Shown here: positions 1 through 13,107 of the stretch, piece after piece
Layout: every line of letters begins with the position of its first letter
Position numbering within the stretch: the stretch's first letter is position 1
IMG/VR virus record: IMGVR_UViG_2648501150_000039
DNA from: a virus
Taxonomy: Duplodnaviria; Heunggongvirae; Uroviricota; Caudoviricetes
Direction: 5' to 3' (one strand)
DNA: 13,107 bases
Notes under the pieces: generated by a model
The model's input: only the letters and a program-made list of their open reading frames with translations
The model's database searches: none
Told to the model about the DNA's origin: nothing
Made by a program: the position numbers and the translations under genes

Positions 1-16
1 AACATGAGCAAACAGA

Positions 17-46
17 CAAAAAAAGGGCCAGCCAATTGGCCAGCCC
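17..46 (-). terminator. Putative rho-independent terminator downstream of the 204..1133 gene
   Basis: Read on the minus strand, plus 25..46 forms an imperfect GC-rich hairpin (GGGCTGGCC-AATT-GGCTGGCCC, two G-U pairs) followed by a 7-nt U tract (plus 17..24 is AAAAAAA). It lies about 160 nt past the stop of the minus-strand CDS. Confidence 0.45.
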
Positions 47-203
47 TTCTTAACAGGATGTCGCTTAAGCGAAATCTTAGTTAAGACGCTTTTACATGAT
101 ACCATTGATAAACATGCATTTTTCATTATAAACAGTTAGTTATATGTATCACTAGTGTAGTCAAGTGCAGCCATAAACATGCTGTGTGGGCAGATTGTGG
201 ACA

Positions 204-1133
204 CTACTTATTTCCCTGTCCAATCTTACCCGCAACTGCCTCGGTAAGCTTTACTAAGGTTTCAAGTTCATTTTTGTCTAATTTTCTTGCTTCAATAATT
301 TCAGTAGTCTGCCCTGATTCTAGTTTTCCAACTCTTGAGCTAAAATTAATTTTATCCAGAAGGTCTATCATATCGATATCTTTCTGGCTAGCCATTACAA
401 GCTTTATAATGGCATAGCTTTCCTCACGTGAACGTTTTATTGCCTCGTAATAGCGAAACTCATCCATCGTAACCCGATATTGCTTCAAAAAGAAAAATGC
501 GATTAACTCCAAGAAAATCAACACGCCAAAATTAGGGAGAAGATACATTACCTTGGTTACCGCATCATCCTTAGCATCAATTACATGTGATTGAGAATAG
601 AAGAAACCTAATCCAACTATTGCAAAACAAACACCGACTAATAAATAAAGACTACCGCGAGAATATATGTTTTTCGCAAGACCTTCAGAGCTATTAATCA
701 AACCTTTAAGATAAAAATCCAGAGATTCATCTTCATCAGCAGCAGCCCTTTCCTCTTGAGCCTTCTTGAGTAGTTTTATCTCATTTATAATATCGACAAT
801 ATTAAACATCGATGATTTGTCGACTGAATCACTCCCTGTAATTCTCATAAACATTCTTTGGATTGGAGACACACCATAGATAATGGTGTAAACGATTACA
901 AATGACACTGCGAATATTGACCTGATAAAGCTCGGCAAATGTGTAAGATCTGCTCTCGCACTGGGAAATAAATAATAAAAGGTTGAGTCTAATATCCCTG
1001 TAGCAAAAATTACATTTGCAACTAGAAAGACTGCACCTATCTCAACTAAATTATAAAAACCACGAGTGCGTACCCTAATGACTTTGGCCTCGGTCATTCT
1101 TGGAGGTGTTTCGATGGTTGGCTCACTCATCAT
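204..1133 (-). CDS. Hypothetical membrane protein, four predicted transmembrane helices in two hairpins separated by a charged coiled-coil-like linker; function unknown
   Basis: 309-aa uninterrupted ORF. Hydrophobic stretches LVEIGAVFLVANVIFATGIL, IFAVSFVIVYTIIYGV, LYLLVGVCFAIVGLGFFY and VLIFLELIAFFFL. AGGA lies upstream of an ATGATG start. The gene is visibly AT-rich compared with the tail genes. I recognise no family. Confidence 0.6.
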   Translation of the reverse strand: MMSEPTIETPPRMTEAKVIRVRTRGFYNLVEIGAVFLVANVIFATGILDSTFYYLFPSARADLTHLPSFIRSIFAVSFVIVYTIIYGVSPIQRMFMRITGSDSVDKSSMFNIVDIINEIKLLKKAQEERAAADEDESLDFYLKGLINSSEGLAKNIYSRGSLYLLVGVCFAIVGLGFFYSQSHVIDAKDDAVTKVMYLLPNFGVLIFLELIAFFFLKQYRVTMDEFRYYEAIKRSREESYAIIKLVMASQKDIDMIDLLDKINFSSRVGKLESGQTTEIIEARKLDKNELETLVKLTEAVAGKIGQGNK

Positions 1134-1410
1134 ATAATCCTGTTAAATTAGAAATAGGGTTAAGAGTTACAGCTTCTTCTAAATGATCTGGTGCAAAATG
1201 AGCGTATCTCATGGTTTCCCTAATGTTAGAATGGCCCAAGATTCGTTGCAGTACTAAAATGTTCCCACCATTCATCATAAAGTGACTCGCAAATGTATGA
1301 CGTAACACATTCGTTTTTTGCCCTTCAGCTAACTCTATATCGGTCAGAGCGAGCATTTTCTTGAACTCCTGATAGCAGGGGTGGAACATTTTTCCCTGTA
1401 AAGGAGCCAA
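1123..1410 (-). pseudogene. Tyrosine recombinase (phage integrase) C-terminal fragment, 5'-truncated
   Basis: The 95-aa translation carries the catalytic C-terminal signature of tyrosine recombinases (VLRHTFASH ... LGHSNIRETMRYAH, with the His/Arg and Tyr boxes). The N-terminal two thirds are absent: sequence upstream of 1410 encodes tail-fibre segments on the other strand. The stop TGA overlaps the ATGATG start of the 204..1133 gene. Confidence 0.85.
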
Positions 1411-1447
1411 CTCGTCATATAGCCACCGAGGGATCGGTACTGTACGA

Positions 1448-1473
1448 TTCTTCTTTCCCTTGGTTTGGGAGAA
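1448..1473. repeat. Left crossover site of invertible segment (gix/hix-like, about 26 bp)
   Basis: The reverse complement of 1458..1474 (CTTCTCCCAAACCAAGG) matches 3466..3482 (CTTCTCCTAAACCAACG) at 15 of 17 positions, in inverted orientation. The half-site TTCTCCCAAACC resembles the Hin/Gin half-site (TTCTTGAAAACC / TTATCCAAAACC as I recall them). The central dinucleotide is AA/TT. The site sits in the fibre reading frame and encodes G-L-G-E. Confidence 0.7.
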
Positions 1474-1959
1474 GGCTCTGCATTACCTGTTGGCGTCCCT
1501 GTTCCGTGGCCTTCAGCCACACCGCCAACAGGCTGGCTGAAATGCAATGGTGCAGCTTTTTCTGCTGAAGAATACCCGGAACTGGCAAAGGCTTATCCGG
1601 CAAATAAATTGCCTGATTTACGTGGTGAGTTTATTCGTGGCTGGGATGACGGACGGGGGATTGATACAGGTCGCTCTATTTTAAGTATTCAGGGGTATGC
1701 AACGGAGGATCATGCTCATGGATTACCGTCAAGATCCACGATTGTGACTGATGCAACGATTAATTTCTATTTTGATGAAAGCTGGGTAAATAGTGGCACT
1801 GACATTATCAAAAGAGGAAACACAAACGATGCCGGATTACCAGCACCGGATTATGGAACCTTTAAAACATATAAACAATCAGTGGCTGGTTTAGGTGCCG
1901 CAGCCTCAGAAACGCGTCCGCGTAATATTGCATTTAACTATATCGTGAGGTCAGCCTGA
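1465..1959 (+). CDS. Tail fibre C-terminal variable segment (Sv-like, tail-collar type); lacks the N-terminal constant part
   Basis: Translation contains tail-collar-like motifs (PTGWLKCNGAAFSAEEYPELAKAY, LPDLRGEFIRGWDDGRGIDTGR). The frame is open only from 1423 and has no upstream coding sequence to join. The stop overlaps the start of the next gene (TGATG). Confidence 0.8.
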   Translation: MGEGSALPVGVPVPWPSATPPTGWLKCNGAAFSAEEYPELAKAYPANKLPDLRGEFIRGWDDGRGIDTGRSILSIQGYATEDHAHGLPSRSTIVTDATINFYFDESWVNSGTDIIKRGNTNDAGLPAPDYGTFKTYKQSVAGLGAAASETRPRNIAFNYIVRSA

Positions 1960-2561
1960 TGCATAAAGCAATATTAAATAGTGAGCTTATTGCAACAAAG
2001 GCAGGGGATGTTACCGTTTATAACTACGATGGTGAAACACGGGAATATATTTCCACGTCAACTGAATATCTTGCGGTTGGCGTCGGTATCCCGGCATGTT
2101 CTTGTTTAGATGCGCCAGTTACACATAAAGCTGGTTATGCAATCTGCCGTTCTGCAGATTTTAACTCATGGGAATATGTGCCAGACCATCGCGGTGAAAT
2201 CATCTATAGCACCGAAACAGGAGAATCGAAAGAAATCACAGCTCCGGGTGATTATCCTGAAAATACAACCACTATCGCCCCGTTAACGCCATACGATGAA
2301 TGGGATGGTGAGAAATGGGTAACAGATACTGTGGCACAGCATAGCGCCGCAGTAGGCGCGGCAGAAGCACAGCGTCAGTCACTGATTGATAATGCAATGG
2401 CTTCCATTAGTCTGATTCAGCTGAAATTGCAGGCCGGACGGAATCTGACGCAGGCAGAAACCGCCCGACTTAACGCTGCGCTGGATTACATTGACGCGGT
2501 GACGGCAACAGATACCAGCACCGCGCCGGATGTCATCTGGCCTGAACTGCCGGAGGCGTAG
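1959..2561 (+). CDS. Tail fibre assembly protein (Tfa / P2 gpG / Mu U family)
   Basis: 200 aa, immediately downstream of the fibre variable segment. The C-terminal DVIWPELPEA matches the conserved Tfa C-terminal motif. Confidence 0.85.
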   Translation: MHKAILNSELIATKAGDVTVYNYDGETREYISTSTEYLAVGVGIPACSCLDAPVTHKAGYAICRSADFNSWEYVPDHRGEIIYSTETGESKEITAPGDYPENTTTIAPLTPYDEWDGEKWVTDTVAQHSAAVGAAEAQRQSLIDNAMASISLIQLKLQAGRNLTQAETARLNAALDYIDAVTATDTSTAPDVIWPELPEA

Positions 2562-2976
2562 GCCATTCAATATCTGGCGCACCGGAAGTATCGACCAGTT
2601 CCAGTGCGTCCAGATAATCCAGCCACAAATTATATTGCGCCAGTTCCTCACCTTTCAGGCGACCAATCGCCGCTTTACCAGGCCATTGCTTACTGTATAT
2701 GTATTCGTTGACCTGATTAATCAATTGCTGCTTTTCCAGTTCGGCTGCAGCAATTTGTTCCTCATGAGTTGGCGGTGGAATTTCCCCCCAGGTGGGAAGG
2801 CCATCATCACCCGCGATGCGTACTTTCCCTTGCAACGTTCTGTCTTCAATAAATTCCAGGTAAGTGTCATATGTCACTTCGACAACATCAGCAAGTTCCC
2901 ATCCGGCCTGTTCATATTTCGCCACATCATTTTTAGCGAAAAAACTATTTTTTGAGGCGCTATAAACCATTTCCAT
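2533..2976 (-). CDS. Alternative tail fibre assembly protein (Tfa', opposite orientation)
   Basis: 147 aa, convergent with the other tfa gene and overlapping its 3' end by 29 bp. The C-terminal DIEWPTPPAV matches the Tfa motif. This is the Mu U/U'-like arrangement. Confidence 0.8.
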   Translation of the reverse strand: MEMVYSASKNSFFAKNDVAKYEQAGWELADVVEVTYDTYLEFIEDRTLQGKVRIAGDDGLPTWGEIPPPTHEEQIAAAELEKQQLINQVNEYIYSKQWPGKAAIGRLKGEELAQYNLWLDYLDALELVDTSGAPDIEWPTPPAVQAR

Positions 2977-2977
2977 A

Positions 2978-3553
2978 TTAATACCCTACTGCAATATAAA
3001 AAACTGATTCACCAGCGTCCTGAGAACCTACCCCCGGAACGCCAGACCAGGTTTTGTTAATGAATGCAAAACTGGTATTACTCAGATCAGATGCTCTGTA
3101 CATCGGGCTGAACATCCAGTAGTTGGCTCCATATGTTTGTCCGAAAACAATGCCATAGCACTGATTTGTAAATGGCGTAGAAAATAATTTTCCACCAGTA
3201 CCAGCGATAGTCCCGAATCGCATCTGGAACCCATTCGGGAAATTAATTCCGCCTGCCGGTGAAGACCAGTAAGACATATCAGGTATTTGCCCAGCACTAT
3301 TTCCCACGTTTTTTGTTGCAACGGTTCCTAACCCAAGATTAGCTCTTGCGTCAGATTTATTTGTTAACTCATAAAGATTATTTGCCTTTTGAAGTGCTCC
3401 TATTATGCGTAAATCATCACCAGCGGCAACGGTTCCGACTGTCGTGCCCACATCCCTTTTCGCCGCTTCTCCTAAACCAACGTTTTCGTTTTTATCCCTA
3501 CCTATACCAACTCTGTATTTTTCACGAAACAAAGAGGATGTTTTTTTATGCAA
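2978..3553 (-). CDS. Alternative tail fibre C-terminal variable segment (Sv'-like)
   Basis: Open frame on the minus strand running through the right crossover site, where it encodes NENVGLGE (the same GLGE junction as the left site). It is glycine-rich and fibre-like, and lies immediately upstream of tfa' on the same strand. The tracked start is an artefact; there is no constant N-terminal region. Confidence 0.7.
   Translation of the reverse strand: MHKKTSSLFREKYRVGIGRDKNENVGLGEAAKRDVGTTVGTVAAGDDLRIIGALQKANNLYELTNKSDARANLGLGTVATKNVGNSAGQIPDMSYWSSPAGGINFPNGFQMRFGTIAGTGGKLFSTPFTNQCYGIVFGQTYGANYWMFSPMYRASDLSNTSFAFINKTWSGVPGVGSQDAGESVFYIAVGY
3467..3492. repeat. Right crossover site of invertible segment (gix/hix-like)
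   Basis: TTCTCCTAAACC-AA-CGTTTTCGTTTT; 3466..3482 is the inverted-repeat partner of 1458..1474. It lies 55 bp upstream of the invertase start codon. Confidence 0.7.
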
Positions 3554-4147
3554 ATTGGCTATATTCGTGTGTCAACAAATGACCAGAACACGGATTTACA
3601 ACGCAATGCACTGAACTGCGCAGGATGTGAACTGATTTTTGAAGATAAAATCAGCGGAACGAAATCAGCCAGACCGGGATTGAAAAAACTGCTCAGAACG
3701 CTATCAGAAGGAGATACGCTGGTTGTCTGGAAGCTGGACAGACTGGGCAGAAGTATGAAACACCTGATCACGCTTATTGAGGAATTGCGGGAAAAAGGTG
3801 TTAATTTCCGTAGTCTGACGGACAGCATTGACACATCAACACCCATGGGGCGTTTCTTTTTTCACGTCATGGGGGCTTTAGCCGAAATGGAACGTGAATT
3901 AATTGTAGAGCGTACACTGGCCGGGCTGGCAGCAGCACGCGCACAAGGACGCATTGGCGGACGTCGCCCGAAGTTGACAAAAGAACAACACGAGCAAATA
4001 GCGAGGCTGATTAAAAACGGTCATGACAGGAAACAACTGGCGATCATTTACGACATCGGCATATCGACGATTTATCGTTATCACCCTGTAGGCGATATAC
4101 AGGCTGAAGAAACAACCAGGCAGACTCAGGAAAATAAAAACCGCTAA
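3548..4147 (+). CDS. Site-specific DNA invertase, serine recombinase (Hin/Gin/Pin/Cin family)
   Basis: The N-terminus MQIGYIRVSTNDQNTDLQRNAL contains the catalytic serine motif of resolvase/invertases. A C-terminal helix-turn-helix region follows (GRRPKLTKEQHEQIARLIKNGHDRKQLAIIYDIGISTIYRY). AGAGGA lies upstream of the ATG. The gene is adjacent to the invertible fibre segment. Confidence 0.95.
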   Translation: MQIGYIRVSTNDQNTDLQRNALNCAGCELIFEDKISGTKSARPGLKKLLRTLSEGDTLVVWKLDRLGRSMKHLITLIEELREKGVNFRSLTDSIDTSTPMGRFFFHVMGALAEMERELIVERTLAGLAAARAQGRIGGRRPKLTKEQHEQIARLIKNGHDRKQLAIIYDIGISTIYRYHPVGDIQAEETTRQTQENKNR

Positions 4148-4173: not shown

Positions 4174-4668
4174 TCAAAACAGCCCTTTAACGGAGCTGGC
4201 CGCGCTGTTAAGGGATGATGTGACCTTATCTTTGAAGCCGGACAGCATATCACTGAACGATGAGGATTGCAGGCGCTCCCGCAAATCCTCATCACAGCGT
4301 TCAAGAGTCAGTGAAAATTCTATCTTTTTCGCCTTACCGTAGCGATCAAACTCGGAACGGGTCGTATTCGTTTCAGTCAGTACATACATGCCGTAAATCT
4401 GCCCGACACCATCAATCAGAGGCCAGGGGCGTCCTGTATATGCCTGCGTGGTCAGCAACGAAAGCGACACTTCGCCACCTGTAATTTCAGGATAAAGCAC
4501 GCCGGAAAGCACGATGCGATCATCACCTGCGCCGATATACTGCCAGCTTGCTGAACGGTTAACGCGTTCATTTTTCACATGCCGCCAGCTTTTGTTTTGC
4601 TGTAACTGCTGATGCGGCAATGTGCGCAGCTCAAAAACAAACATGCCGTAGATCATCATCATGGCCAT
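4174..4668 (-). CDS. Phage tail protein, P2 gpU-like
   Basis: 164-aa ORF directly downstream of the tape measure gene in the same orientation, matching the position and size of gpU in the P2 FI-FII-E-T-U-D order. The exact start among several N-terminal Met codons is uncertain. Confidence 0.75.
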   Translation of the reverse strand: MAMMMIYGMFVFELRTLPHQQLQQNKSWRHVKNERVNRSASWQYIGAGDDRIVLSGVLYPEITGGEVSLSLLTTQAYTGRPWPLIDGVGQIYGMYVLTETNTTRSEFDRYGKAKKIEFSLTLERCDEDLRERLQSSSFSDMLSGFKDKVTSSLNSAASSVKGLF

Positions 4669-4674
4669 GACTCC

Positions 4675-7524
4675 TCAATCTTTATCGTAAAAACTGCCAC
4701 GCCCGGCACGGGCGCGCCGTTCCATTTCTGCCCTGACCATTTCGCCAATCAGTTTCGCCAGTTCGCGGGGATTCTGTGTAACAACGTTATGCAGATGAAC
4801 ATGAATTTCACCGCCAAATCCGGAGGCAACAGGCTCCCGGTTACGGGAAGTTGCAGGAACTGATGCCACTGGCGATCGTATAGCCTCCGCCACCGGGCGG
4901 GAGCTGGCCGCAACAACAGGGACCAGCGCCGGAGGCAGCGGAGCCGGAACCACGGGTGTGATAGTAATTGCGGGGGCAGGCTTACTGACCTGCGCAATCT
5001 TCCGCTCCTGCCACTCCCCACGAACAGCAAGTGCGCGGGGCAGGTTCTTAAAGACAATATCGCCGGGGCCAATGCGTTTTTTCGTCTCATCAACCAGCTT
5101 ACCTGTGTTATCAGCAATTTTGCTGAGTCTGCGTAGCGTACCGGTATTGTTGTCTGTGAGCGGTTTGTTGTCTCTGGGTTTATCGCCTTTTTTGTCGTCG
5201 ACCTTATCTGACGGGGCCGGGCCGGGAGTCCATGGTTTCTGAACCATTTTCTTGAGAACCGGATCCCATTCCCACATTACAGGAGCCTTTGAAGCGTTCT
5301 CTATTTTCTTTCTCGCCCGTTCCGCTTCATCCGGAAGCACTCCGAGCTTTTCAAGTATCCACGCCAGTGAATCCATCAATGCTTTTGTTGGCGTCAGGAC
5401 AAGCTCTATCGCTCCACCGAGTACCCTGCCGAATACCTCGCCAGCACTGGTACATTTATCCAGCGTTTCCTTGCTGGACTCCATCGGTGACAGCAGCGAT
5501 TTAAACCAGTTAAAGACCTGAATAATCCCATCGCGCACGACATCAAAAACTGGACCGAACCGTTCAAAGGTTTCGCGCAACGGAGCCAGCCGTTCCATAA
5601 TCCCACTGAACACCCCTGCATAAAACGCCTTGATGGGTTCCCAGTATTTCCAGATGAGAACCGCCGCAGCCACAAACGCAGCAGCAATCAATCCGACCGG
5701 GCTGAACAGCGCCCCGATAGCGCCCCCCAGTAACGAAACGGAACCCGTCACCATTCCCCATAGTGCTGGCAGGAGCCTGACAGCATTCATTGATCCGGTC
5801 AGGAGGGAAAAGCCAAGACGCAGTTTTGCCAGCGGGCCAGCAAGCACACCAATAGCCAACGACAACGAGCCGACCGTTGCAGTCATCGCCAGCAATGCCC
5901 CACCTGCAATCAGTAGCTGGCGCGTCAGTGCCGGATGGGCCTGCGCCAGCGCCGTCACCTTTGATACCACCCGCGTGAGCCACTGCGTGACAGAACGCAG
6001 CGGACCGTCAATCAGATCTGCAATGCGGATGCGCAACCCTTCCCATGCACTGCCGAGTGATTTCAGATCGCCGTCAAGGTTGTTGGCCATAACCTTTGCT
6101 GTGCGTTCAGCCTCACCGCGCGCGCCTTCAAGTTCTTTTCTCAGTTTGGGTAAGGAGCCGTCACCCGCTGCATCAACGAGCGCCATAAACGATGTGAAAG
6201 CCTCTTCTCCGGCAATGTCCTTAAAGAACGATACCCGGTCAACTTCCCCGTATTTGCGGGTGGCTTTATAAAGGTCGGCCAGTACATCCTCCATCGGGCG
6301 CATTTTGCCGTTCGCGTCAGAGACAGCCACACCCAGCTCTTTCAGCGCCTCTGCTGCCGCCTTTGGCGGTGATGCCAGACGAGCCAGGCTGGCACGCATT
6401 GCCGTCCCGGCATCACTCCCTCTGATGCCCATATTCGCCAGCACGCCCGCCATCGCAGCGGCCTGCTCCAGCGATATTCCCAGCTTACCCGCCACCGGAC
6501 CTGCATATTTCATGGTTTCGCCCAGCGCGCGAAGGTCAGTGTTGGTACGGGTAAACGCCGCTGTAAGCGTGTCGCCAACCCGGTCCATCTGGTCAGCAGA
6601 GAGGCCGAACTGCGTCAGGATATTTGAGCCAATATCCGCCGTCTCGCCGAGATCCATACCGCCAGCCGTTGCCATGCTCAGCACGCCGGGAAACGCAGCC
6701 TGAATGGCCTGCGGAGTAAAACCAGCCATTGCAAGAAATGCCTGTCCACTGGCGGCATCTCCAGCGGTGAACTGCGTTTCAGAGCCAAGTTTTAACGCCT
6801 GCTCACGCAGCGCCTTAAACTGTGGGCTGTTTTTGTCGATTCGCGTCAGTGCCTGAACGCGGGACATCTCTTTCCCGAACCCAATCGCGGGCTGCAAAAA
6901 ACGCCCGGCAGCATAGCCGCCCGCCGCTGCCGCACCTGTTGCCAGTGCACCACCTGTTTTCAGTTTTCCCGCGGTTTCCTGCGCGCGCGAATACCGCTCA
7001 CGCGCCCGCGTTACACGCGCAAGCGCCTGCCGTTCGCGTTCAAGCTGGTTGTTGTACTGTTCGGTGCGTCTGATGGCCTGCTGGATGGTGTTATCGCTGC
7101 CTGTCAGGGAAATGCCGTGGCGTTTCAGCTCTCCGCCAAGCTCCCGCATTTTCTGAATCTCCCGTGTGCGCGATTCATTCAGGCGTTCAAGCCGGGTGCT
7201 TAACTGCTGCATCAGCTTTTGTTGTTTTTCGCTGAGCACTGTACCCGTGCGTTGTAACTGATTAAGGGCGTTAAGCTGGCGTCGTGCTTTCACGATACCC
7301 GCATCCGCTTTACTGACAGCGTCGCGGGCGCGCTCAAATGAACGCGCCTGACGCTCGAGATTTTTGATCGCCCCCTGCGTTCGCTGGATGGAGTCACCAA
7401 ACTGCCCCATCAGGCGGCGTGCGTTTTCTGCAGGTCGGGTCAGCCTGTCAACGGCGCTGAAAGCGACCCGGATATCAAGAGTCTTCATTGTCTGCATTCC
7501 CGCTGCGAAGTGCCGCCCGCTCAC
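4675..7524 (-). CDS. Tail tape measure protein (P2 gpT-like)
   Basis: 949-aa ORF with a coiled-coil N-terminal third (repeated QRTxxL, ERxRQALAR-type heptads), a central Gly/Ala-rich hydrophobic segment, and a position between E/E' and U. The true start may be an internal Met (MQTMKTL), overlapping the end of E'. Confidence 0.9.
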   Translation of the reverse strand: MSGRHFAAGMQTMKTLDIRVAFSAVDRLTRPAENARRLMGQFGDSIQRTQGAIKNLERQARSFERARDAVSKADAGIVKARRQLNALNQLQRTGTVLSEKQQKLMQQLSTRLERLNESRTREIQKMRELGGELKRHGISLTGSDNTIQQAIRRTEQYNNQLERERQALARVTRARERYSRAQETAGKLKTGGALATGAAAAGGYAAGRFLQPAIGFGKEMSRVQALTRIDKNSPQFKALREQALKLGSETQFTAGDAASGQAFLAMAGFTPQAIQAAFPGVLSMATAGGMDLGETADIGSNILTQFGLSADQMDRVGDTLTAAFTRTNTDLRALGETMKYAGPVAGKLGISLEQAAAMAGVLANMGIRGSDAGTAMRASLARLASPPKAAAEALKELGVAVSDANGKMRPMEDVLADLYKATRKYGEVDRVSFFKDIAGEEAFTSFMALVDAAGDGSLPKLRKELEGARGEAERTAKVMANNLDGDLKSLGSAWEGLRIRIADLIDGPLRSVTQWLTRVVSKVTALAQAHPALTRQLLIAGGALLAMTATVGSLSLAIGVLAGPLAKLRLGFSLLTGSMNAVRLLPALWGMVTGSVSLLGGAIGALFSPVGLIAAAFVAAAVLIWKYWEPIKAFYAGVFSGIMERLAPLRETFERFGPVFDVVRDGIIQVFNWFKSLLSPMESSKETLDKCTSAGEVFGRVLGGAIELVLTPTKALMDSLAWILEKLGVLPDEAERARKKIENASKAPVMWEWDPVLKKMVQKPWTPGPAPSDKVDDKKGDKPRDNKPLTDNNTGTLRRLSKIADNTGKLVDETKKRIGPGDIVFKNLPRALAVRGEWQERKIAQVSKPAPAITITPVVPAPLPPALVPVVAASSRPVAEAIRSPVASVPATSRNREPVASGFGGEIHVHLHNVVTQNPRELAKLIGEMVRAEMERRARAGRGSFYDKD

Positions 7525-7711
7525 GCCAGCTAACCACTTCGCCGGGCGTCATCATGAAGATTTCGGCGGGCGACCAGTTAAAAATAACGGCAATATCTGC
7601 CACAAAGTCTTCTATGTGCTCAAAGCACACAACCGTGATCAGGCTTCCGTCGCCTGTTCGTTCTTCCCGCCAGAGTCCGCACCGCTCAAAAAATTTACGG
7701 CAACCACACAT
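7475..7711 (-). CDS. E' frame: C-terminal extension of the E+E' tail assembly chaperone, reached by -1 frameshift
   Basis: This ORF is in the -1 frame relative to E, begins around the slippery heptamer, and ends overlapping the start of T, as in the P2 E/E'/T arrangement. It is not an independent gene. Confidence 0.7.
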   Translation of the reverse strand: MCGCRKFFERCGLWREERTGDGSLITVVCFEHIEDFVADIAVIFNWSPAEIFMMTPGEVVSWRERAALRSGNADNEDS

Positions 7712-8004
7712 AACTGAATAAAGTCACGGGATGCCATTTTTTTGATCGTCACTTCATCCAGTCGCGGTGATGTCACGCGTGACAGCAGCGTAAACATGGA
7801 TTCCGCTTTCAGATTCAGCACATCAGACAGCGACAAATCTCGCAGAGATCCAGCCTGCTCAATAGCCCCGGTGATCTCCACATACGTGATTTTTTCGCCG
7901 CCTCGCTCAATTGGTTGGGTAAGTTTTACGCCACGCTCACTGGTTTCTTTCACAGTGTCAGCAACTACCGTGTTTTCGGTATCGATGTTTTTCGTCTCTT
8001 TCAT
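7639..8004 (-). CDS. Tail assembly chaperone, P2 gpE-like (0-frame product)
   Basis: 121-aa ORF between the tail tube and tape measure genes. AAAGGAG lies 7 nt upstream of the ATG. It contains the slippery site near its 3' end. Confidence 0.75.
   Translation of the reverse strand: MKETKNIDTENTVVADTVKETSERGVKLTQPIERGGEKITYVEITGAIEQAGSLRDLSLSDVLNLKAESMFTLLSRVTSPRLDEVTIKKMASRDFIQLCVVAVNFLSGADSGGKNEQATEA
7687..7693 (-). other. Programmed -1 ribosomal frameshift slippery heptamer T_TTT_TTG (E to E+E')
   Basis: The minus strand reads GTA AAT TTT TTG AGC in the E frame (V N F L S). Slipping back one nucleotide enters the 7475..7711 frame (RKFFERCGLW...). TTTTTTG is the heptamer used by P2-like E/E' genes. 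Confidence 0.75.
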
Positions 8005-8058
8005 CAGGAAACTCCTTTCAGTCAGAGGCGGCGCACTGCGCCGCCTGCATATTACTTA

Positions 8059-8571
8059 TCAGCCAAGCCCAAGCGCGGAACGGATGCGATCGGGCACAAT
8101 GTCCTTGCCGTCCTTCCGGTAAATGAAGTTCAGCAGGTCAATCTCCCACAACGGGCGATCGTTAACACTCAGCTTGTAGTAGGTGTTTTTAATGGCGTAA
8201 GTGTGTGATGTGGCTTCGCCCTGTTTGGCTTCCCCCATATCAATTTCCGTCACACGTCCGCGCATCTCGATTTCATACAGATCGCTTTCTGCATCGGTGT
8301 AGTATTCACCCGCAAAACGCAGCAGCGTGCCGTCAATCGTGCCGCCATACTTAAGGAACAGCTCACGAACTGCGCCCCCCATGACAAAGCTCGCATCAAG
8401 CGCGGAGTCGTCCAGACCGAGATCAATACTTACCGCACCCATCATGCCACCACCCCGGTAGCTGTCGGTTTTGCGCGTCAGCTTAGGCAGAGTGACGGAC
8501 GTCACCTTACCCACTTCGTTTTCACCATCCACAAACAGCGTAAAAAAGCGAAGATGTTTTGGTACAGCCAT
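8059..8571 (-). CDS. Tail tube protein (P2 gpFII-like)
   Basis: 170 aa, immediately downstream of the sheath gene with a TGATG stop/start overlap. Size and position match the P2 tube protein. Confidence 0.85.
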   Translation of the reverse strand: MAVPKHLRFFTLFVDGENEVGKVTSVTLPKLTRKTDSYRGGGMMGAVSIDLGLDDSALDASFVMGGAVRELFLKYGGTIDGTLLRFAGEYYTDAESDLYEIEMRGRVTEIDMGEAKQGEATSHTYAIKNTYYKLSVNDRPLWEIDLLNFIYRKDGKDIVPDRIRSALGLG

Positions 8572-9755
8572 CAGGCACCTCCCAGCACCGCAAATGCGGG
8601 ACCAAAGAATTCATCAGTAAACGACTGGTAAAGCTCCATGTCTTCCAGCGGGGGAACAGGCGTATATTTGTAGCGAATACGCACACGCCCCTGACGTAAA
8701 TTCGTGGTGCCGTTATCCACCACGTCATACCAGCACGACGCCCCAATCAGTTTCCCGGCAGTAACCAGTGAATCCAGTTTTGCCCTGATGGCACTGATAA
8801 CATCTTTCACGTTCGCAGGCGTCAGTGGACTGTCGATGGTTTCAAACTGCGCTTCCGCAATTGAATCAGCCAGCACCTGTGCGGTTCGGGTATACACCTC
8901 AAAGATGTAGGCGTTCGTTTCCGGTGTGCGGTTGCCCCAGAAGCGGAACCCGTTGCGACGAATAATGGTCGTGATTTCTTTGTTGTTGAGGCTGTTGGCA
9001 TCGCTGTCTTCGGCCTGCAACGACCAGAACACATGCCTGGACATCCCCAGCACATTTTTAACCGGAACGTTGGACAGTGATTTGTGCCATCCCTGCTCAT
9101 GGTCAATGTACGCACGAAGGCCGCACGCATAGGCAGGCGCGGGGAACGTTTCGTTTTTGCCACTTTTCGGGTTGTAGGCGATGAAGTCCGGCCATAAGAG
9201 CATCACCTCACGTTCGTTGAATTTCTGGCGGTAGGTAATCACCTCAGCCATCGTGTTACAGCCGTGACATGAGGCATACACAAACGCGCGCAGTTTACCC
9301 GCAATCACGCACAGGGATTTTGTCACCGCCTCCGTGTCCAGCTCCGGCGCGGCCAGAATACGCGGACGGTATCCGATGCTTTCATCCTGCTCTGCAACAA
9401 GCAGCGCATACATCCCCGTATAGCTGCCGTCAGATTCAGAACCACCGATAACCAGTTGATCCTGCGTCTTTCCGTCTTCTTCTTTGTGTTCAGCCACGCG
9501 AACGACGATCACCTTTGTGCTCACCTGGTCTGCGATGGCCTTAAGCGCACGATAAAGCGTCCCCGTTGTCCCGCATTTTCCCAGCACGTCATTGACGCGG
9601 GTCAGCAGTGTGGGCTTGTTCAGCGGGAACAGCTTCGCGTCCGCATCATCCGCCGTTGCCACGATACCGATAACGCTGGAATCAACATCGTTAATCGCTG
9701 TTACCAGGTCGGTATTTTCCGTAACACGGGCACCATGAAAACGAGTTTCACTCAT
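8571..9755 (-). CDS. Contractile tail sheath protein (P2 gpFI-like)
   Basis: 394 aa. Motifs I recall from P2 FI are present: FPLNKP, KLRAF, YRQKF, WPDF, EQGWHKSLSNV, RRNGFRFWGNRT, YTRTAQV, YTPVPPLE. AAGGGG lies upstream of the ATG. Confidence 0.92.
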   Translation of the reverse strand: MSETRFHGARVTENTDLVTAINDVDSSVIGIVATADDADAKLFPLNKPTLLTRVNDVLGKCGTTGTLYRALKAIADQVSTKVIVVRVAEHKEEDGKTQDQLVIGGSESDGSYTGMYALLVAEQDESIGYRPRILAAPELDTEAVTKSLCVIAGKLRAFVYASCHGCNTMAEVITYRQKFNEREVMLLWPDFIAYNPKSGKNETFPAPAYACGLRAYIDHEQGWHKSLSNVPVKNVLGMSRHVFWSLQAEDSDANSLNNKEITTIIRRNGFRFWGNRTPETNAYIFEVYTRTAQVLADSIAEAQFETIDSPLTPANVKDVISAIRAKLDSLVTAGKLIGASCWYDVVDNGTTNLRQGRVRIRYKYTPVPPLEDMELYQSFTDEFFGPAFAVLGGA

Positions 9756-9912
9756 AGCTTTAGCCCCTTGTATCCGTTAAATGATTCGGCAACAATCATC
9801 ACCCACCACGCGCGTAATCTCACCCCTGTGCCGTTCTCCCGATCCGGCGACAACAAAAAGCAGTAACCCCCTCCGCACGCACATGCGACCATGCCGCACA
9901 GGGAGGGAACAG

Positions 9913-11022
9913 ATGACCGATACCACCATGCAATTGCTCAGTCAGGGCACAGACCCCGTGAAAATGCCGGATTTTGATATTCTCGCGGAGGGTAAAACGC
10001 TGTCAGGCGTGGCAGAGCGCCTGATGAGCCTGTCACTGACCGACAACCGGGGATTTGACGCGGACCAGCTCACCATCACGCTGGATGATGCGGATGGTCA
10101 GTTGCAGCTACCGCCACGGGGCGCGCGCCTGACGGTTCTCATTGGCTGGAAAGGAGAACCGCTGACAGAAAAAGGCACTTACATTGTTGATGAAATCGCT
10201 CACGAAGGACCGCCGGACAGGCTGACTGTTTCAGCCAGAAGCGCAGATTTTCGGGATGAATTTAACGTTAAACGTGAGGTGTCCTGGCATGATGTGACCG
10301 TTGAGCGTGTGGTATCCGCCATCGCTCATCGGTATGGTCTGAAACCGCAAATCAGCGAAATGCTGATGGATATCGAAATCGACCACGCCGACCAGACCGA
10401 AGAAAGCGATATGTCCTTCCTTACGCGCATGGCGGAAATGCTGGGCGCAATCACCACGGTAAAAAGCGGCAATCTGTTATTCATCATGCCAGGTGGTGGC
10501 GTGAACGCACAGGGCCAGCCGTTGCCATCGTTCGCCATCACACGCAGCAGCGGCGATCGCCATCAGTTCCGCATTGCTGACCGCGAGGCGTATACGGGGG
10601 TACGCGCTTACTGGCTTGATCTTAATTACGGGAAAAAGAAAAAAGTCAGCGTGAAACGCCGCAAACCGCCAAAACCCAAAAAGGAGAAAAGCAGCAGCCG
10701 TGAAGGTGATTATATGGAAGGCGCGGAAGGCAATGTGTTTGTGTTACGCAAGACTTATCAGAACGAGCAGGCAGCAAGACGCGCAGCGGCGGCAAAGTGG
10801 CAGCAGCTACAACGCGGAGCCGCATCATTTTCCATCACGCTGGCGCGTGGACGTGCAGAACTCTACCCCGAAATGCATGGCACGGTAACAGGATTTAAAA
10901 GCGAGATTGATAATCAGGACTGGATTATTGCAAAAGCCGAGCACACCATTGATAACAGCGGCTTTACCACGCAGCTTGAGCTTGAGGCAAAAATCCCGGA
11001 ATGGATAGCAGAAACAGCGTGA
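9913..11022 (+). CDS. Phage late control gene D family tail protein (P2 gpD-like)
   Basis: Long ORF; the likely start is the ATG at 9913, preceded by GGGAGGGAA (the tracked ORF starts upstream at 9781). Size is about 370 aa. The call rests on overall resemblance to P2 gpD as recalled and on its position next to the other P2 tail genes and ogr. Confidence 0.8.
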   Translation: MTDTTMQLLSQGTDPVKMPDFDILAEGKTLSGVAERLMSLSLTDNRGFDADQLTITLDDADGQLQLPPRGARLTVLIGWKGEPLTEKGTYIVDEIAHEGPPDRLTVSARSADFRDEFNVKREVSWHDVTVERVVSAIAHRYGLKPQISEMLMDIEIDHADQTEESDMSFLTRMAEMLGAITTVKSGNLLFIMPGGGVNAQGQPLPSFAITRSSGDRHQFRIADREAYTGVRAYWLDLNYGKKKKVSVKRRKPPKPKKEKSSSREGDYMEGAEGNVFVLRKTYQNEQAARRAAAAKWQQLQRGAASFSITLARGRAELYPEMHGTVTGFKSEIDNQDWIIAKAEHTIDNSGFTTQLELEAKIPEWIAETA

Positions 11023-11113: not shown

Positions 11114-12283
11114 CTAATATTGAGAAAGATAATCAGCGACTCCATCTGCAGGGTTTCGCCCACCAGTATAAATTGTGCCTAATTCTTGAGGTGTAACATA
11201 TGTTGTAGGCCAAATGGCCATATTTTTAAAATAGTTATCTATTTTTATTCTTTGAAGTTCTTTAAAGAGATAATCTTCTAAGTCATTTCTTTTTAGACAG
11301 TTAACATAATAAGCAGCCGCACTTGCTACTATATCTACAATTTGTAATTGAGGATACTCTTGTGATGAATGGAATGTCAAAGAACGAGCTTTAATTGGCA
11401 ATTCAAATTTTCTTCGATCATAACCATATGCCTCCGTAATTTTTGATATATCCATAAATTTATCAAAAATATCTTTCTTCTCTGTAATAGCTTTGGAATC
11501 GTCATGCTTAATATAAAAACCATTAGGGTATAATTTACCCCATTCTACACAGTGTCTAAAGAGGCTTGGTATAGATGGATCTAATGTGCTTTTCTCAACA
11601 CCTTCCAATATATCATCAATATCGCTTCTGGTAATACTAATTCTGTTTATTATATCTGTGAATATCTTATCACTTGAGCATATCTTTAACTCATCAATTA
11701 CCCTGTAAAATTCATCAATTGACTCAGTCGATTGGCTTCTGATCATATTCATAAAACACTGATACATTACCTCTGTTTTTTCCTCCCCACAGAAAGCAGG
11801 GAAACAGAAATAGTAAACATTAGACAGAGCTAGATTCTGTCCATTTATATAAAGATCTATTCCTCTATTAGAGCACCACGTCTCGATCAAAATATCAACA
11901 ATCTTTGCTGTTAGCATGTATTTTTTATCGACCAAGTATATTTTAACATTCTCTTCATTGACATATTTGCTTTCAAGAAGCCTAATGATGCCATCCTGAC
12001 CAGATTTTCTACGTCTAAGAGTTTTAAAGTGGGCTTCTGTTGGAGACTTGCTTCCGGTTAGTTCTAATGCCTTAAGCGCATCCTGTTTACTAATACTACT
12101 TGAACTTAAGGTAAAAACAGGTTGCAATGGATCGAGTAAATTTCCGCCAGTATTACCTGATTCATCAAAAAATATATCAGGCTTTATATACAACATTTTA
12201 TTTATCTTTGCCGCTAAGTTTCTTTTTTTCTCATTTTCTCGCTTAATTTTATTATCTCGCCTACGTTGACTATTCTTTCCCAT
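11114..12283 (-). CDS. Hypothetical protein, AT-rich cargo gene; possible DUF3800-like family (motif-level recall only)
   Basis: 389-aa uninterrupted ORF antisense to both gpD and ogr. K/R-rich N-terminus, then DIFFDESGNTGG; near the C-terminus QLQIVDIVASAAAYY. These resemble the DESG and Q-x-x-(A/V)-D signatures I associate with DUF3800. Codon usage is strongly AT-biased, unlike the flanking phage genes. Confidence 0.65.
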   Translation of the reverse strand: MGKNSQRRRDNKIKRENEKKRNLAAKINKMLYIKPDIFFDESGNTGGNLLDPLQPVFTLSSSSISKQDALKALELTGSKSPTEAHFKTLRRRKSGQDGIIRLLESKYVNEENVKIYLVDKKYMLTAKIVDILIETWCSNRGIDLYINGQNLALSNVYYFCFPAFCGEEKTEVMYQCFMNMIRSQSTESIDEFYRVIDELKICSSDKIFTDIINRISITRSDIDDILEGVEKSTLDPSIPSLFRHCVEWGKLYPNGFYIKHDDSKAITEKKDIFDKFMDISKITEAYGYDRRKFELPIKARSLTFHSSQEYPQLQIVDIVASAAAYYVNCLKRNDLEDYLFKELQRIKIDNYFKNMAIWPTTYVTPQELGTIYTGGRNPADGVADYLSQY

Positions 12284-12515: not shown

Positions 12516-12776
12516 ATGTTCCGTTGTCCGCTTTGTGGCGCATCTGCCCGTATCCGCACAAGTCGTCCGGAAAATGATTCAAACACCGTGCGGCAAAAGT
12601 ATTACCAGTGTAACAACCTGGAATGCGGCGTATGCTTCTCAACACTGGAAGCCTTCCATAAATTCACATCAAAACACGCCTCCGCCGTTCACTCTTCAGA
12701 AGGTATCCCGTGGCATGAGCTGCCAGCTTCACACAGGGGAAACAATCAGATGAGTTTGCCTTTACCTCAGAACTAA
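12516..12776 (+). CDS. ogr: Ogr/Delta-family zinc-finger late transcription activator
   Basis: The N-terminus MFRCPLCGASARIRTSR ... YYQCNNLEC gives a C-x2-C ... C-x4-C zinc-finger spacing close to P2 Ogr (MFHCPLC ... CQNVNC). Strong SD AAGGGAGG lies upstream. It sits downstream of gpD, as in P2. Confidence 0.85.
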   Translation: MFRCPLCGASARIRTSRPENDSNTVRQKYYQCNNLECGVCFSTLEAFHKFTSKHASAVHSSEGIPWHELPASHRGNNQMSLPLPQN

Positions 12777-12836: not shown

Positions 12837-13100
12837 ATGGTCGGAGGGAATACCCGAAGGCCAGATGTGGAAAGGCCCCGGAAAACATCTCTGTTTAACC
12901 GAGGCCCTAACCGCATTACCTTGACAAGTGAAAGGTTAGCGCCTCTCCGGAAAAGGAGCAAGTGCTATGTCGCAAAAATCGCTTACGGCCATCACGTTCT
13001 GCGTGACGGCAATCCTCATCATCTGGATGCTGCACGGTTCACTGTGCGAAATACGGATGAGCTTCTGGGGAGCGGAGTTTGCGGCGTTCTTACAGTGTAA
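12837..13100 (+). other. mok-like overlapping reading frame (possible translational-coupling ORF for the hok-family toxin)
   Basis: 87-codon ORF in a different frame that overlaps almost the whole toxin ORF and ends 7 nt before it. This is analogous to mok in hok/sok loci, but may be fortuitous. Confidence 0.3.
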
Positions 13101-13107
13101 GCAGTAA
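12967..13107 (+). CDS. Hok/Gef-family type I toxin (small membrane peptide)
   Basis: Manual translation gives the 46-aa peptide MSQKSLTAITFCVTAILIIWMLHGSLCEIRMSFWGAEFAAFLQCKQ. It has an N-terminal transmembrane helix, then SLCEIR and EFAAFLQCK, matching the Hok-family signature (compare Hok ...SLCEIR...EVAAFMAYE). AAGGAG lies 8 nt upstream. It was not in the ORF track because it is under 60 aa. The stop is the last codon in the window. Confidence 0.75.
   Translation: MSQKSLTAITFCVTAILIIWMLHGSLCEIRMSFWGAEFAAFLQCKQ

Follow-up and report, generated by a model that had tools for sequence, protein, structure and literature searches.

An orphaned tail-fibre switch and a hybrid DNA-invertase crossover site at the border of a 21-kb prophage deletion in enteropathogenic Escherichia coli

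The stretch of DNA analysed here, referred to throughout as the window (13,107 nucleotides; IMG/VR record IMGVR_UViG_2648501150_000039, Caudoviricetes), begins immediately 3′ of the yfiB stop codon of an Escherichia coli chromosome and carries a prophage remnant in which an invertible tail-fibre switch lies directly against a truncated integrase gene. It corresponds to JHRF01000033.1, a short-read draft contig of an enteropathogenic E. coli (EPEC) assembly (GCA_001265355.1), with 0 mismatches over 12,976 comparable bases. Positions 1-1475, which include the junction between integrase and switch, are 100% identical to the EPEC reference strain E2348/69, and just one mismatch separates the two sequences before position 2659. 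In E2348/69 the island between yfiB and rplS measures 11,604 bp and consists, in order, of a hypothetical gene of 308 codons, an integrase pseudogene described by the Prokaryotic Genome Annotation Pipeline (PGAP) as “incomplete; missing N-terminus”, a fibre cassette, two tail-fibre assembly genes, a second cassette, an invertase gene (192 amino acids in this strain), the P2-type tail genes FI, FII, E, T, U and D, and finally ogr.

The integrase sequence at the left of the switch (1123..1461, minus strand), delimited by Pfam, tblastn and DNA identity, is the 3′ fragment of a tyrosine integrase gene and encodes approximately residues 234-345 of 345, followed by the stop codon. When the intact 345-residue integrase is compared with the window by tblastn, residues 230-345 only are matched (1473-1126, minus strand), and the Pfam Phage_integrase match is restricted to profile positions 111-170 of 172. 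The fragment has lost the N-terminal DNA-binding domain (Int_N, present in the intact integrase copies) and holds an incomplete set of the catalytic residues (R-K-H-R-H/W-Y); the deleted part presumably contained the first catalytic Arg.

To the right of this fragment lie two fibre C-terminal cassettes on opposite strands, each with its own tail-fibre assembly chaperone. The plus-strand cassette (1465..1959) comprises 164 codons read from a TTG that lies inside the crossover site described below; it encodes a Collar domain (Pfam, E = 1e-14), is 96.5% identical to residues 374-543 of an intact 543-residue fibre (tblastn, window 1447-1956) and is followed by a chaperone gene (1959..2561, plus strand; Pfam Caudo_TAP, E = 3e-31) identical to that of E2348/69. 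The minus-strand cassette (2978..3553) shows homology over 2981-3481, where it is 99.4% identical to residues 378-544 of a 544-residue fibre protein (tblastn, window 3481-2981), and gives a weak Pfam match to Gp53-like_C; the extension of its open reading frame (ORF) to 3553 is due to chance. Its chaperone (2533..2976, minus strand; Caudo_TAP, E = 4e-30) is of a P88-like type and is also present, unchanged, in intact P88-like prophages. Next to this cassette an intact serine DNA invertase of the Gin/Pin family (199 amino acids; 3548..4147, plus strand) is recognized by Pfam as Resolvase (E = 1.5e-51) and HTH_7 (E = 1.4e-12) and matches the Mu Gin structures 4m6f and 3uj3 over its full length (E = 3e-91), with the catalytic Ser in an RVSTNDQ motif. 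By analogy with gin, to which the gene is highly similar, its 5′ part probably contains a Fis-dependent enhancer.

What the switch lacks is the constant part of the fibre. By tblastn, residues 1-373 of the 543-residue fibre and residues 1-377 of the 544-residue fibre have zero matches anywhere in the window, so that in neither orientation does the segment meet the first ~375 residues; a functional fibre switch has this constant N-terminus outside the segment, in frame across the left site, and none is found there. An earlier note on this DNA, made from the sequence alone, had claimed as much, had placed the 3′ third of an integrase on the opposite strand beside the switch, and had read the plus-strand fibre frame as open only from 1423 and the minus-strand frame as closed just past 3553. 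These observations all hold: a TAG occupies 1420-1422 and the first possible plus-strand start is the TTG at 1465, while on the minus strand the first start is a TTG at 3553 and a stop (TGA on that strand) lies at 3572-3574.

The ancestral arrangement is preserved in other strains. Thirteen of 5426 complete E. coli genomes are 99.7% identical to window 1-1466 and carry a full-length integrase gene at the same yfiB site. In strain 1190 the site between yfiB and rplS holds a complete 186/P2-like prophage of 32,638 bp, which runs from the gene for the 308-residue protein through int, CI, CII and the replication, portal/terminase/capsid and lysis genes to the baseplate genes V-W-J-I, the fibre gene H with its invertible segment, the invertase gene, FI-FII-E-T-U-D and ogr. 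Compared with this prophage, the E2348/69 island aligns over 1-1466 at 99.7% identity and over its last 8.3 kb at 99.9%, its invertible segment aligns in the inverted orientation, and the middle ~21 kb are gone. The alignment locates the missing constant region of the fibre between int codon ~233 and the fibre crossover site of strain 1190, and everything between these two points is absent from the remnant, in the window and in the E2348/69 island alike. Looked for elsewhere, as the earlier note had advised, the deleted 5′ part of the integrase gene together with CI turned up in the 13 intact genomes only and in none of the four complete E2348/69-lineage genomes. Having no integrase, repressor, replication, head or baseplate genes left, the element is a decayed prophage that stays locked in the chromosome.

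The junction itself falls within an invertase crossover site. Fibre switches of this family use 26-bp sites of 12 + 2 + 12 bp and exchange strands at the central dinucleotide (PMC4134206, Table 3 and text). Three-way comparison of the window with the intact int and fibre genes identifies such a site, TTCTTCTTTCCC-TT-GGTTTGGGAGAA, at 1448..1473 on the plus strand and reveals it to be a hybrid, its outer half (1448-1459) coming from the integrase gene and its inner half (1462-1473) from the fibre-gene site, on either side of the core TT (1460-1461). Intact int reads GTACGA TTCTTCTTTCCC TT CGTTTTAGTGAA AGTCAAC, the intact fibre gene reads CAGGGAG TTCTTGATTACC TT GGTTTGGGAGAA GGCTCTG, and the window reads GTACGA TTCTTCTTTCCC TT GGTTTGGGAGAA GGCTCTG, matching int as far as the TT and, beginning with the TT, the fibre site. 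Because the parents have only CCTT in common there, the exchange point is fixed to window 1458-1461. The earlier note had put the junction at 1411-1447, just outside the crossover site, which needs correcting: the breakpoint lies inside the 26-bp site and integrase sequence continues through 1461, the codons of the outer half-site being those of the conserved TKGKKNRTVPI strand of the integrase.

The right crossover site, TTCTCCTAAACC-AA-CGTTTTCGTTTT (3467..3492, plus strand; core 3479-3480), precedes the start of the invertase gene by 55 bp. Its minus-strand sequence is AAAACGAAAACG TT GGTTTAGGAGAA, and the identical site is found in intact P88-like prophages. The left and right sites are in inverted orientation with a matching core (TT left, AA right, plus strand) and enclose an invertible segment that, between the core dinucleotides (1462..3478), measures 2017 bp in the window and 1884 bp in the E2348/69 version. 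A small serine recombinase, paired inverted 26-bp sites and the occurrence of both orientations, documented below, make this a switch of the Gin/Hin/Cin/Pin type. Among natural right-hand sites the outer half-sites are very poorly conserved (e.g., AAAACGAAAACG, GAGAGATAAACG and AATTAATTCACG) and the inner halves almost invariant. One good half-site with ACG/ACC beside the core seems to be enough for a site to be used, which makes it more likely that fortuitous quasi-sites are usable.

The integrase gene contains just such a sequence. Its quasi-site, native to the intact int genes, is TTCTTCTTTCCC-TT-CGTTTTAGTGAA (TTCTTCTTTCCCTTCGTTTTAGTGAA when written contiguously). A half-site position weight matrix (PWM) was derived from nine distinct natural sites of the compared prophages, leaving out the quasi-site and the hybrid, and applied to all 4713 TT-core 26-mers on both strands of the intact island. 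The quasi-site ranks third of the 4713: the two cognate sites score 33.0 and 27.7 bits, the quasi-site 16.6 bits and the next best sequence 6.8 bits. Sites of at least 16.6 bits are expected by chance 0.004 times in the intact island, and 16.6 bits is also the score of the weakest natural site. At 21.9 bits, the hybrid falls inside the natural range of 16.6-33.0 bits, a score that fits with its activity. The quasi-site and the left fibre site both read TT on the plus strand and are therefore direct repeats, 21,073 bp apart; given this shared core and polarity, recombination of one with the other should produce a deletion that agrees exactly in kind and size with the one observed. In contrast, a random deletion would strike both cores, each endpoint falling in a given 4-bp window of the island, with a probability of ~1e-8. 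The remnant thus has a junction at the central dinucleotide, with one half-site from each parent, and its parental secondary site is consensus-like and of the right core and polarity, as should be the case, at the level of sequence, for the product of invertase action at a quasi-site.

Despite the loss of its fibre, the switch still inverts. Carriers of the junction were found through a 77-residue product that is called only on the truncated integrase, and the 24 longest contigs were scored; 15 are oriented as in E2348/69 and 9 the other way round. Flipped contigs carry, from core to core, an exact reverse complement of the 1884-bp segment (0-1 mismatches) between flanks that show no change. 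Orientation is intermixed with single-nucleotide polymorphisms (SNPs) in the flanks, one flipped contig being nearer to an unflipped one than two unflipped contigs are to each other. These observations concern the E2348/69-type version; the P88-type right half of the present contig was not seen flipped. Inversion has also been recorded in clonal cultures of E2348/69, at NC_011601.1 2977580-2979467 with 93 ± 4% in the forward orientation (Goldberg et al., 2014; PMC4272514, Table S1), where the repeat is reported as TTG(G)TTTGGGAGAAG (PMC4272514). These coordinates are exactly those of the two cores, 2977580 falling at window 1460 in the hybrid site and 2979467 in the right site. The same study treated the locus as an ordinary P2 fibre switch (PMC4272514) and lists orientation ratios of 93:7 for what is here the orphan switch, about 51:49 for e14 and 60:40 for a Mu-like prophage (PMC4272514, Table S1). 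The 93:7 bias could result from slower recombination at the hybrid half-site TTCTTCTTTCCC. We also considered whether the two orientations arose by two independent deletions, one in each switch state, and rejected this origin on account of the exact reverse-complement inner segments, the intermixing of orientation with flank SNPs and the presence of both states within single colonies.

From the position of the exchange and the nature of its two partners, we infer that the 21-kb loss was very probably a deletion catalysed by a DNA invertase between the quasi-site in int and the cognate left site of the fibre gene. The earlier note had suggested a deletion or illegitimate recombination at a crossover site, possibly invertase-mediated, and the involvement of an invertase is now strongly supported, the exchange lying at the central dinucleotide and the partner being the best secondary site of the intact prophage. 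The ancestor would have been a complete 186/P2-like prophage of ~32.6 kb between yfiB and rplS, whose tail-fibre gene H carried a Gin/Pin-type invertible segment and whose integrase gene fortuitously held a good 26-bp look-alike of an invertase site with the same TT core and polarity as the left site. An invertase, perhaps the phage's own or perhaps that of another prophage acting in trans, as has been described for inversion (PMC4134206), would have cut both sites at the central dinucleotide and swapped the halves. As exchange between direct repeats excises the intervening DNA, 21,073 bp would have left as a circle and been lost, and with them the 5′ two thirds of the integrase gene, CI/CII, the replication, head, lysis and baseplate genes and the constant region of the fibre. 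The 3′ part of int, the hybrid site, the invertible segment, the right site, the invertase gene and the tail genes would have been left over in that order, with the hybrid site remaining a working substrate and the segment continuing to invert in an element that could no longer excise.

Several considerations weigh against an invertase-made deletion. Invertases strongly disfavour deletion between direct repeats, which occurs only as a rare side reaction, and either such a side reaction or an intermolecular event between sister chromosomes must therefore be assumed; a rare event is enough, because the loss of lytic genes can be fixed. The wild-type Gin/Hin-type enzymes build a Fis/enhancer invertasome that aligns the sites for inversion (PMC3798978). 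In addition, the PWM is derived from only nine natural sites with nearly identical inner halves, and the parental left site of the E2348/69 lineage was itself deleted, so that relatives serve as its stand-ins. The 4-bp identity CCTT could in principle also have been a substrate for microhomology-mediated illegitimate recombination. On such an account, the junction arose by ordinary RecA-independent slippage or end-joining at the CCTT common to both parents, and its coincidence with invertase sites is accidental. Deletions are generally known as the commonest route of prophage decay, and the reluctance to delete of invertases, whose invertasome aligns sites for inversion (PMC3798978), also speaks for this explanation. 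We nevertheless find it very improbable: both endpoints are on the central dinucleotides of invertase-like sites, of which one is cognate and the other (16.6 bits; 0.004 expected) is the sole non-cognate 26-mer above 7 bits in 32.6 kb, two random endpoints would fall in the given 4-bp windows only at the ~1e-8 calculated above, and the product is a functional site that is still recombining.

An invertase might also have acted in two steps, first flipping ~23 kb between the int quasi-site and the right site and then deleting the DNA between the hybrid site so formed and the left site, by then relocated. The outcome would look the same, and the quasi-site (TT) and the right site (AA, plus strand) are inverted with respect to each other, the geometry that invertases prefer. 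This route seems unlikely to us, as it still needs one deletion between direct repeats and adds a step without removing a difficulty, and the predicted 23-kb inverted intermediate is present in none of the 13 intact and >24 deleted examples. A route to the deletion by inversions alone was rejected, since each path requires one deletion between direct repeats. As for the quality of the sequence, the window derives from a short-read draft contig that may hold a mis-join at 2532-2658, and one could imagine that the left junction is likewise mis-assembled and that the constant region truly lies beside the switch. This is effectively refuted: the same junction, base for base, is found in four complete E2348/69-lineage genomes and in over 20 further assemblies, including some with ~5-Mb contigs and ENA and Logan assemblies from independent projects; paired-read mapping in E2348/69 puts the inversion endpoints exactly at the junction (PMC4272514); and the 5′ part of int is missing from the complete genomes of the lineage. 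A single invertase-catalysed deletion between the quasi-site and the left fibre site is the account we retain.

The earlier note had called this a switch that can flip but not express a fibre. The flipping is now documented by the assemblies and by the published cultures (PMC4272514), and the failure of expression is probable, as the switch has neither a constant region nor an operon promoter or ribosome-binding site to go with it. Upstream of 1465 the plus strand has no sigma-70-like promoter, and inspection by eye of 1448-1464, ahead of the TTG, finds no Shine-Dalgarno sequence; the baseplate-fibre operon, which lies upstream of H in intact prophages, has been lost from the remnant. The N-terminal part of a fibre anchors it to the baseplate, and a 164-residue fragment without this anchor could not form a fibre. 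Both cassettes are thus likely to be silent. A terminator-like hairpin at 1428-1453 on the plus strand was taken as a chance occurrence (8 found vs 4.3 expected). It is conceivable, although in our view distinctly unlikely, that the orphan switch is a domesticated phase-variable module, in which the Collar-domain fragment and its chaperone are made from the TTG inside the conserved half-site in one or both orientations. If so, the fragment would serve the host, perhaps by covering a surface receptor and so hiding it from phages or tailocins, as has been reported for StfE2 of e14, and the ongoing flipping and intact ORFs across the EPEC lineage would reflect selection. In the same vein, and as unlikely in our view, self-deletion by invertases at quasi-sites might be a recurrent route by which P2-like prophages are disarmed.

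From 2659 onward the window departs from E2348/69 and matches P88-like (Xuanwuvirus-type) prophages, with 99.7% identity to a P88-like prophage of a sister strain and ~96% to one at ihfA in TUM13770. Between the two parts lies a 127-bp stretch (2532..2658) that is identical in both parents, the last mismatch to the P88-like prophage being at 2531 and the first mismatch to the remnant at 2659; it sits at the convergent, overlapping 3′ ends of the two tail-fibre assembly (tfa) genes. The join is either a homologous-recombination joint, formed for example by a circular phage genome entering the remnant, or a short-read mis-join, and the left junction is unaffected by which of these it is. That the assembler bridged the 127-bp repeat, the strain truly having at yfiB a remnant of the E2348/69 type and, apart from it, an intact P88-like prophage, is a serious possibility that we place a little short of probable. 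The shared stretch is exactly 127 bp long, only a single contig was found to combine remnant and P88-like sequence, and in a sister strain sequenced by the same project they lie on different contigs (L009 and L038). The two elements are moreover in direct orientation, so that a genuine exchange, other than one between the remnant and a phage circle entering the cell, would leave the junction of a deletion or duplication. On the other hand, homologous exchange at conserved tfa 3′ ends is a normal mosaic boundary, and a single crossover of a circular P88-like genome into the remnant gives exactly this arrangement.

The end of the contig near hok is uninformative, as the short-read contigs L009 and L006 also end close by (within ~330 bp of ogr and ~100 bp past ogr, respectively); the joint makes no unique protein, and an exact-protein look-up with the DUF3800 protein encoded farther right returned common ihfA-located prophages only and not this contig. 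A chromosomal inversion between the yfiB remnant and the P88-like prophage at ihfA was rejected, both being in the same orientation, as was an inversion through the flipped segment, which would place the fibre constant region, and not the invertase gene, after the second cassette.

The remaining genes of the right part stand in a P88-like context: gpU (4174-4668, minus strand), the tape-measure gene (4675-7524, minus) with the gpE region next to it, the tube (8059-8571, minus) and sheath (8571-9755, minus) genes, gpD (9781-11022, plus), a DUF3800 gene of 389 codons (11114-12283, minus) between gpD and ogr, and ogr itself (12516-12776, plus). The last gene of the window (~12967-13107) is probably hok, of the hok/gef family, according to the annotation of the matching TUM13770 prophage. 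The block of sheath, tube, E, tape measure and U genes in P88-like prophages (4174-9755, minus; compared with L001 16057-21169) is inverted relative to P2/186 and follows directly after the invertase gene, with gpD and ogr oriented as in P2; the inverted tail block could conceivably go back to an old inversion that had one end beside the invertase gene and right site. The DUF3800 gene, for whose product PADLOC gave no convincing match, is very widespread (2658 blocks), and in other copies of this prophage its position is taken by a gene of 221 codons without a Pfam match (L007) or has insertion sequence (IS)/transposase genes alongside (L018, L025), so that it looks like the site of a moron or a hotspot.

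At the other end of the window, a strong hairpin terminator (20-51) follows directly 3′ of yfiB, and the gene for the 308-residue protein (204..1130, minus strand), annotated as hypothetical in E2348/69 and strain 1190, lies directly downstream of int. Of the genes of the 186/P2-like prophage at yfiB it lies farthest left, on the attL side, and the remnant has kept it intact. Its product, of unknown function, belongs to no Pfam family, its best PADLOC match is a weak and implausible one to Cas5a (E = 0.0015), and the assembly collection has it in 1375 blocks; the gene may be cargo for lysogenic conversion or defence. In another assembly, GCA_001267345.1, contig JHRJ01000008.1 (~6400-13600) has a fibre switch between two invertase genes of opposite orientation (199 and 190 amino acids), a tape-measure gene split into pieces of 471 and 456 amino acids on opposite strands, and adjoining Mu-like transposase, Gam, GemA and Mor genes, which points either to rearrangement between prophage switches or to one more assembly chimera of the same project.

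In its components the locus resembles the Gin, Cin, Pin and Hin switches, such as the Mu G, P1 C and e14 P segments and EC958 Phi2, in having a serine invertase of ~190-200 amino acids, two inverted 26-bp sites and paired fibre C-terminal cassettes, each with a Caudo_TAP chaperone of its own; the inner half-site GGTTT(G/A)GGAGAA and the natural outer halves agree with the table published for EC958 Phi2 (PMC4134206). Unlike those switches, it has no constant fibre N-terminus on either side, its left outer half is integrase coding sequence, and its inversion changes no protein. The e14 P segment of K-12 and EC958 Phi4, which has a truncated invertase and is flipped in trans, likewise continue to invert in prophages unable to make virions, but unlike this remnant they retain the constant fibre part. 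Iida and Hiestand-Nauer, in work of 1986 and 1987 that PMC4134206 cites, reportedly found that P1 Cin recombines at quasi-sites, in laboratory plasmid and phage assays and mostly by inversion. There, as here, a cognate site pairs with a look-alike of the same central dinucleotide, exchange takes place at that dinucleotide and a hybrid site is formed; the present case differs in being a natural, fixed 21-kb chromosomal deletion that inactivated a prophage, deduced from genome comparison. In the PinQ/StfE2 system of recombinase-activated phage defence, an invertase also acts on the fibre switch of a cryptic prophage (PMC12529663), but there inversion fuses two ORFs into an expressed protein that blocks T2 adsorption (PMC12529663), whereas here no upstream ORF and no expression signal were found. 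As in prophage decay by internal deletion generally, the ends have been kept, the central lytic and lysogeny genes lost and the element locked in place; what sets this example apart is that its endpoints are defined to the base by a recombinase site pair instead of being random or IS-mediated.

Quasi-sites, flipping in defective prophages, the annotated partial integrase and the measured inversion in E2348/69 were already known. The “P2” locus of Goldberg et al. (2014; PMC4272514) is this very junction, and neither the hybrid nature of its left repeat nor the missing constant region was reported there. New are the attribution, at base level, of a prophage-killing 21-kb deletion to a pair of invertase sites and the finding that the phase-variable “P2” locus of E2348/69 lacks a fibre to vary. 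Text searches of a literature in which work of the 1980s was sparsely represented turned up no previous account of a prophage deletion made by an invertase.

At present the locus is a well-explained scar, an instance of ordinary prophage decay with an unusually clean mechanistic signature, which would become more interesting if a host function were found. The label “phage tail protein” that gene callers give to such orphan cassettes is misleading. Read as we propose, it would be a natural example, resolved to the base pair, of an invertase acting at a secondary site to delete two thirds of its own prophage, an activity seen so far mainly in laboratory constructs. It would also show that fibre-switch invertases can, beyond varying host range, contribute to prophage decay and genome rearrangement.

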